64,000 nucleotides of DNA from Octopus vulgaris (lineage: Eukaryota), in the NCBI GenBank assembly GCA_951406725.2, contig OX597838.1:31124001-31188000 (forward strand), read 5' to 3'. Numbering within the stretch: the first letter of the stretch is position 1; each line of letters begins with the position of its first letter. Both the position numbers and the translations under genes were made by a program. Positions 34,270 to 34,350 of this stretch are shown here, piece after piece. The notes under the pieces are model-generated. The model was not told where the DNA came from. It did not search any database and saw only the letters and a list, made by a program, of their open reading frames with translations.

Positions 34270-34350
34270 CTGTCTTTGAAGACTCATATTGTCGTTGAAT
34301 GCTCGAAATAAGGAGTAGATAGACAGCCGACAACTGATGGAAGGTCTTTC
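34270..34350 (+). ncRNA. Putative non-circularly permuted hammerhead (family 2)
   Basis: ctgtct...actca-TA-ttgtcg-tt-gaatgctc-GAAA-taaggagt-agatagacagc-cgacaa-CTGATGG-aaggtc; stem I ttgtcg/cgacaa, extra helix ctgtct/agatag or agacag; A9 mutated. Confidence 0.6.

Follow-up and report, generated by a model that had tools for sequence, protein, structure and literature searches.

The hammerhead ribozyme has been divided into three blocks, C, G and S, and the non-circularly permuted orders SGC and CSG were found to cleave (Eckert et al., 2023; PMC10085705). In that work the blocks are assumed to be uninterruptible, and no known hammerhead has an insertion beyond 1-2 nt next to CUGANGA. [quoted passage not shown] As far as the available parts of this source extend, no SGC or CSG example was found in the genomes of known organisms (PMC10085705). 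Natural single insertions at the A9/G10.1 step have a cost that depends on the base, with A10C and A10G being strongly detrimental (PMC3705267).

In retroelements, minimal type I hammerheads of Penelope/Poseidon, Neptune and Hydra Penelope-like elements (PLEs) and of non-LTR retrozymes are located near the pLTR or in the PLE tail (PMC11167929; bioRxiv 2026.07.22.740005). Naiads are reported to prefer (TA)n and to lack canonical hammerheads; in eight cases they have a "half core" whose other half lies on one side or the other (Craig et al., 2021; PMC8557442). Neither a hammerhead opened at A9/G10.1 nor a permuted hammerhead in Naiads was reported in the mainly open-access full-text literature searched, or in the available parts of Perreault 2011, Forgia 2023, PMC13725137 and two preprints from 2026. 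The available parts of Forgia 2023, Perreault 2011 and a 2026 zeta-virus preprint describe no helix at A9/G10.1.

The window analyzed here is a stretch of 64,000 nucleotides of Octopus vulgaris DNA. An earlier note had read its positions 34270 to 34350 as a hammerhead core with reversed block order (C-B-A), an extra helix and a cut after A34288. All strings listed there are present at their positions, and the core, the reversed order and the predicted cut could be upheld as readings. The span could not: the listed pieces are correct, but stem II was missed, and the motif covers positions 34217 to 34347 of the forward strand (family 2). From a construct of 34270-34350 cleavage would not be expected, since it lacks stem II.

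In 5' to 3' direction, the element begins with the 5' strand of a closing helix, Px (34217-34229), the C-run of which is about 7 nt longer in the window copy. It is followed by the 8-bp hairpin H1 (34230-34263, with 34230-37 paired to 34256-63), which adjoins Px and stem II without a linker in the majority of copies. The 5' strand of stem II (34264-34268, G34264 being G10.1) forms 5 of 5 Watson-Crick pairs with 34300-04; a Watson-Crick partner for 34300-04 was also sought 3' of the core, where none was found. One nucleotide past stem II starts the 5' strand of helix I-II (34270-34275), the extra helix of the earlier note, with 6 of 6 Watson-Crick pairs to 34321-26. Next come the stem III 3' strand with U16.1 (34287) and H17 (A34288) at 34283-34288 and the stem I 5' strand (34289-94) with a 5-nt linker (34295-99; together 34289-34299). 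The cut between 34288 and 34289 is predicted from the hammerhead consensus.

The second half of the element comprises the stem II 3' strand, GAAA (34305-08) and the stem III 5' strand (34300-34312), a purine-rich junction strand with the 3' strand of helix I-II (34313-34326), which ends one nucleotide before stem I, and the stem I 3' strand with the core C3-A9 (34328-34340). The core reads CTGATGG at 34334-40 in the window copy. Directly 3' of A9 lies the Px 3' strand (34341-34347), which with the majority G at 34342 forms 6 Watson-Crick pairs to the majority upstream strand, and a T-rich 3' tail (34348-34465) leads into (TA)n. Stem I (34289-94/34328-33), which follows the UH at 34287-88, has 6 of 6 Watson-Crick pairs in the window copy, stem II has 5 pairs and stem III 4 of 5, owing to a copy-specific mismatch at A34310; with the majority G34310 stem III has 5 of 5. 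The junction strand appears kink-turn-like by eye, in a non-standard form. A kink-turn is defined by a 3-nt bulge followed by tandem G-A/A-G pairs; in family 2 tandem G-A pairs are possible at 34278-79/34318-19, but the strand lengths of 7 and 8 nt depart from the standard.

Compared with the hammerhead consensus, family 2 contains C3-U4-G5-A6-N7-G8-A9 in the majority of its copies (the window copy has G at A9), G12-A13-A14 within 34305-08, the A15.1-U16.1 pair with T34287, and A34288 as H17. Stems I, II and III adjoin the core with G10.1-C11.1, stem II only via its upstream strand. Types I, II and III have the order C-G-S with nested stems, whereas the order in family 2 is S-G-C with crossing stems. 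The C-B-A order is not an unknown one, as it equals that of type SGC (PMC10085705). Block C, uninterrupted in type SGC, where the stem II 5' strand starts no more than 1-2 nt after CUGANGA, is interrupted here, with the Watson-Crick partner of stem II at 34264-68 and Px after A9. Block A of the earlier note (CUGANGA and the stem II 5' strand) is divided, its stem II portion being found 5' of the coordinates given there, and for this reason the motif is not a plain SGC hammerhead.

The type SGC sequences of that source (HRIMA-1 and variants) share with family 2 the order S-G-C and helix I-II. They differ in that block C is split in family 2, Px and H1 entering at A9/G10.1, in that all three linkers of family 2 are covalently closed, and in that family 2 is an animal genome repeat. 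With type CSG (two soil-metagenome sequences), family 2 has the cyclic order, helix I-II and a UUAA-type linker in common; CSG keeps its A9-G10.1 link unbroken and has its ends between G and C, whereas family 2 is opened at A9/G10.1. The CChMVd (+) hammerhead with its extra A10 is a natural insertion at the same step, where it has one bulged nucleotide in a canonical order and family 2 has two helices and open RNA ends (PMC3705267). The minimal type I forms of PLEs and retrozymes mentioned above, which act as dimers, have, unlike family 2, the canonical C-G-S order without crossing helices. Family 2 RNA is predicted, with a probability of roughly 0.7, to form a non-circularly permuted hammerhead which is opened inside the core, would cut itself after A34288 and likely derives from the 3' tail of a Penelope-like (Naiad-type) retroelement. 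Hammerheads with additional helices are reportedly treated in work by Weinberg from 2015.

For the comparison between copies, contigs of four public runs were aligned to 34180-34460 (5321, 5783, 3917 and 732 contigs). Family 2 is a high-copy repeat; contig counts were taken as abundance from three of the runs (3917-5783 each), and summed depth does not equal copy number. In the window copy A9 is replaced by G, stem III contains a C-A mismatch and Px is damaged. At 34340 (A9), A was found in 95.5-98.8% of the depth, at 34310 G in 91.5-98.3%, which completes stem III, and at 34342 G in 87.5-92.6%, which feeds a 6-bp Px (four runs each). A C-run 7 nt shorter, with T at 34229, accounts for 86-95% of the depth, and the majority Px of 6 bp abuts A9 and H1 without linkers. 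In each of the four runs, A9, stem III and Px are thus intact when the majority letters are used, and most family 2 copies have every core letter and helix. Because the majority differs exactly where the model breaks in the window copy, this copy is decayed; it is probably inactive or slow and makes a poor test substrate, being mutated at A9 and in stem III.

Among the variants listed, none falls on the UH or on one of the two strands of stem II. Variants in stem I occur at 34294, 34328 and 34329 (5-16%) and were not counted as covariation, since they lie on CpGs and are unlinked. Conservation inside family 2 is expected for a young repeat. The minimum-energy fold of the window copy is a rival one, in which 34300-04 pairs with 34313-17 and GAAA is buried (-14.7 kcal/mol); the nested scaffold, taken with its crossing helices left out, reaches -9.5 kcal/mol. 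The z-scores of single-sequence folding, in which crossing helices are not representable, were -2.60 for family 2, -2.04 for family 1 copy a and -3.11 for family 3. Contig depth climbs near 34300 in 4 of 4 runs, and contigs cannot reveal ends.

Two truncated relatives of family 2 were identified in the window. The copy at 21280-21426 (forward strand) follows a (CT)n run and starts at the position corresponding to 34302; the more diverged one at 52587-52774 (reverse strand) follows (TA)n and starts at that corresponding to 34303. As the earlier note had stated, the spacer between GAAA and the core is 25 nt in all three copies, and the downstream flank of the full copy is common to both relatives; the note had left out that the relative at 52727-73 lies on the minus strand. 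The core motif C3-A9 is complete in both (at 21312 and 52738). Their starts are 13-14 nt downstream of the predicted cut and not at the cut. Family 2 copies end in (TA)n-type runs, a weak sign of Naiads in a genome full of (TA)n.

The same architecture occurs in two further families of the window. In agreement with the earlier note, which had seen no evident similarity between families 1 and 2, families 1, 2 and 3 are mutually without similarity in BLAST. The claim of the earlier note that structure is kept across divergent sequence is supported. Family 1 is represented by copy a (20233-20481, forward strand, H17 at 20344), in which stem III is decayed, and copy b (38501-38722, reverse strand), which differs from a by a compensatory stem I pair and in which a deletion has removed GAAA together with most of the 3' strand of stem II. 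Px, H1 and an upstream stem II are present in family 1, where each of the two copies shows a pair of U-U mismatches at the Px junction. Over four copies of the three families, 24 of 24 stem I pairs are kept with different sequences, and the linker from S to G is in each family 5 nt of the form TT-purine-A-(A/T).

In the family 3 copy (35240-35490, reverse strand, H17 at 35360), H1 and G10.1 are lost by a deletion at 35387/35386. It was predicted beforehand that other copies would carry the Px partner of 35305-35300, a hairpin and a G at the deletion point, and this was found to be the case: the insert at 35386 was present in 24 and 22 contigs in two runs (agreement 0.8). The hairpin measures 5 bp and has an A-G apposition at its closing end. 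For 89-94% of the depth, the mismatch in stem III is repaired; a G-to-A variant of stem III at 35336 reaches 46-61%, and a compensation for it is not among the listed variants. The segment of stem I, core and Px (35295-35321) shows a contig depth of about 4-5 times that of its neighbours, which suggests further sister families sharing this segment.

The number of such cores was compared with a null model. The descriptor (UH-stem I, GAAA, stem I-CUGANG(A/G), in the order S-G-C) matched 4 strict cores in the window, whereas 60 local dinucleotide shuffles gave a mean of 0.15 and none of them reached 4. The match at 35831 was rejected as a palindromic false positive, so that three are real (families 1, 2 and 3); a relaxed match at 27118 was rejected for its weak, mutated core. 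The palindrome itself, at 35829-35893, is near-perfect, lies between (TA)n runs and is MITE-like. A reading of the core as a C/D box was rejected by inference, as N7 varies and stems flank the core as in a hammerhead. A second null model, designed after the motif had been seen, used 20000 shuffles of the 50 nt upstream of stem III. An upstream stem II with an abutting helix I-II occurred in 3 of them for family 2 and in 69 for family 1 copy a; stem II alone is weak against this null (1138 and 3237 shuffles, respectively).

The Rfam hammerhead models gave no match to 34150-34450 at E-values up to 10. They also missed a candidate hammerhead of canonical order at 44278, and this negative result therefore has low power. 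Standard descriptors and Rfam would miss all split-core motifs of the kind proposed here. For the whole window, which is microsatellite-rich, the best 150 of 604 Rfam matches are microsatellite-driven. A metagenome scan with one family 2 stretch returned 0 matches.

For the comparison with published Naiads, the final 330-400 characters of the consensus sequences were inspected by eye in 53 of 54 cases, all but Cmel (PMC8557442). In the parts viewed, the stem II 5' strand lies upstream in 8 of the 53 tails (Amil, Aacu, Anas, Obim, Ovul, Bfor, 3_Chem and 2_Movir). Amil, Aacu and Anas, from corals, are near-identical, as are Obim and Ovul, from octopus; stem I of Bfor has only 2 bp, and the upstream part of 3_Chem and 2_Movir lies outside the stretch viewed. 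Zero-linker junctions of Px, H1 and stem II could be seen in the coral and octopus tails, and a standard kink-turn signature in Obim and Ovul. Six nematode tails have the unsplit CSG order, one (Esco) is a mismatched version and five from arthropods contain half cores, whereas 33 have no such motif in the part viewed. Family 2 resembles the Naiad PLEs in its (TA)n context, its T-rich tail and, for 8 of the 53 tails, the RNA layout near the 3' end. The Naiad paper, in the parts available, labels only "core" or "half core", and neither an ORF nor a direct sequence match connects family 2 with a particular Naiad (PMC8557442). Five short motifs of the window were sought verbatim in the available part of the Naiad supplement and none was found (0 of 5), so that the link between family 2 and Naiads consists solely of layout and context. 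No retroelement ORF (including N-terminal GIY-YIG, CxC and C-terminal RT) was seen by eye among the 179 frames of at least 110 aa in the window.

The half cores of the arthropod tails (Ptep, Smim and 1/2/4_Dst) occur in further arrangements, in at least one of which GAAA precedes the core. Just past the ORF, another conserved motif of structured appearance was observed in the viewed tails of CGi, Sglo, Olur, Tgra, Pmar, Skow, Pfla, 1/2_Chem and 1_Movir; it is possibly another ribozyme. The tails of Mgal, Bpla, Mphi, Scon and Mmer contain a motif that we take, by resemblance, to be Twister-like, which suggests that Naiad subclades swapped ribozyme classes.

That the cores are chance pattern matches in a repeat-rich genome is hardly credible. 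One of four descriptor matches is a false positive and the helices are short; against this stand the excess over the shuffles, the family 3 prediction, the null model for stem II with helix I-II, and a layout which matches published elements of four phyla. The arrangement could also be a plain type SGC hammerhead with an intact block C, in which stem II uses bases immediately 3' of CUGANGA and the pairing with the upstream strand is a coincidence. The majority bases 34342-45 could indeed pair with 34301-04 (4 bp, two of them G-U, with one inserted A), and in families 1 and 3 downstream strands are likewise able to pair with the stem II 3' strand. The upstream strand, by comparison, forms 5 of 5 Watson-Crick pairs and adjoins helix I-II exactly as in SGC and CSG, in family 3 copies the hairpin and G10.1 lie upstream as predicted, Px is favoured by the majority letter at 35287, and the coral and octopus Naiad tails have upstream stems of 5-6 bp by eye in the parts viewed. 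The intact-block arrangement is thus considered improbable.

It is somewhat easier to imagine, though still unlikely, that the fold is real and acts mainly as a non-catalytic or barely catalytic RNA signal of hammerhead-derived shape, for example a binding or template-switch site for the reverse transcriptase. A Poseidon PLE is reported to insert in vitro without the need for hammerhead cleavage, and RNA-seq gave no reads with an end at the site (PMC11167929); the truncated family 2 copies likewise start elsewhere than at the cut. In favour of catalysis, C3-A9, GAAA, the A-U pair and H17 are kept over the three families and in ctenophore, cnidarian, mollusc and nematode elements, while the helix sequences change. 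A further question concerns the carrier, which we consider somewhat more probably a Naiad than not. HERO-type non-LTR elements have an ORF with RT and a C-terminal restriction-like endonuclease, and such an element, or another one, is a serious though less favoured candidate for carrying the ribozyme, since none of the five short motifs sought had a verbatim match in published Naiads. The (TA)n flanks agree with the insertion bias of Naiads, the architecture is seen by eye in the viewed tails of the published octopus Naiad consensus sequences, and no paper linking Hero and the hammerhead was found in the literature searched.

For the split hammerhead, the preferred reading, a fold can be proposed from the strand order. 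A9 would lead into Px and H1 into G10.1, a long-range helix and a hairpin thereby replacing the A9-G10.1 link. Px would stack on H1 as the side arm of a four-way junction, with stem II remaining on A9-G12. In the established hammerhead structure C11.1-G12 is continuous, which would permit both stackings at once. Opening the SGC/CSG ring at A9/G10.1 would give this fold as a circular permutation, in which stem III and helix I-II would have to turn back in the direction of stem I. Less confidently, read-through or tandem transcripts may be trimmed to unit length by cuts in successive tails, and, equally tentatively, the ends may stay paired by Px, stem II, helix I-II and stem III (about 22 bp), which would favour religation. 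More speculative, and doubtful as a whole, is the broader model that Naiad-type and perhaps other animal retroelements use this undescribed topology, opened at A9/G10.1 by a four-way junction, with four helices keeping the two ends of a unit-length transcript together and so favouring religation into a circular template. Naiads would then have in it their missing ribozyme, non-circular permutations their first large genomic source and the two orphan soil CSG ribozymes their likely origin.

If the split hammerhead is true, the assumption of uninterruptible blocks breaks and topologies are added beyond the six enumerated. Non-circular permutations would shift from environmental RNA of unknown origin to high-copy repeats of animal genomes, and there would be a testable answer to why Naiads seemed to be without the ribozyme of other Penelope-like elements. 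Split and unsplit forms within one element clade would also offer a natural comparison for structure and kinetics.

Several other features were observed in the window. A candidate for a minimal type I hammerhead of canonical order and Penelope-like kind lies at 44247-44283 (reverse strand) after an (AAT)n run, with a 5-bp stem II and a short palindromic stem III; this is the candidate without detection by Rfam. A fourth repeat family ending in (TA)n was found at 34580-34785 (forward strand), 33753-33853 and 39677-39786 (both reverse strand), and its stretch at 34647-34674 resembles a decayed canonical minimal hammerhead. An inverted copy of this family adjoins the 5' side of the family 2 element, and 33750-35500 is a nest of at least four remnants. 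A 133-aa frame at 6475-6876 (reverse strand) resembles a fragment of a mariner-type transposase. The long imperfect inverted repeat at 19014-19147, which scores 58 bits to a miRNA model, far under the threshold, is probably a MITE. Finally, a SINE-like family with an internal (CA)n spacer is present in more than 10 pieces, among them 7329-7589, 24260-24671, 26652-27078, 38725-39132 and 57794-58327.
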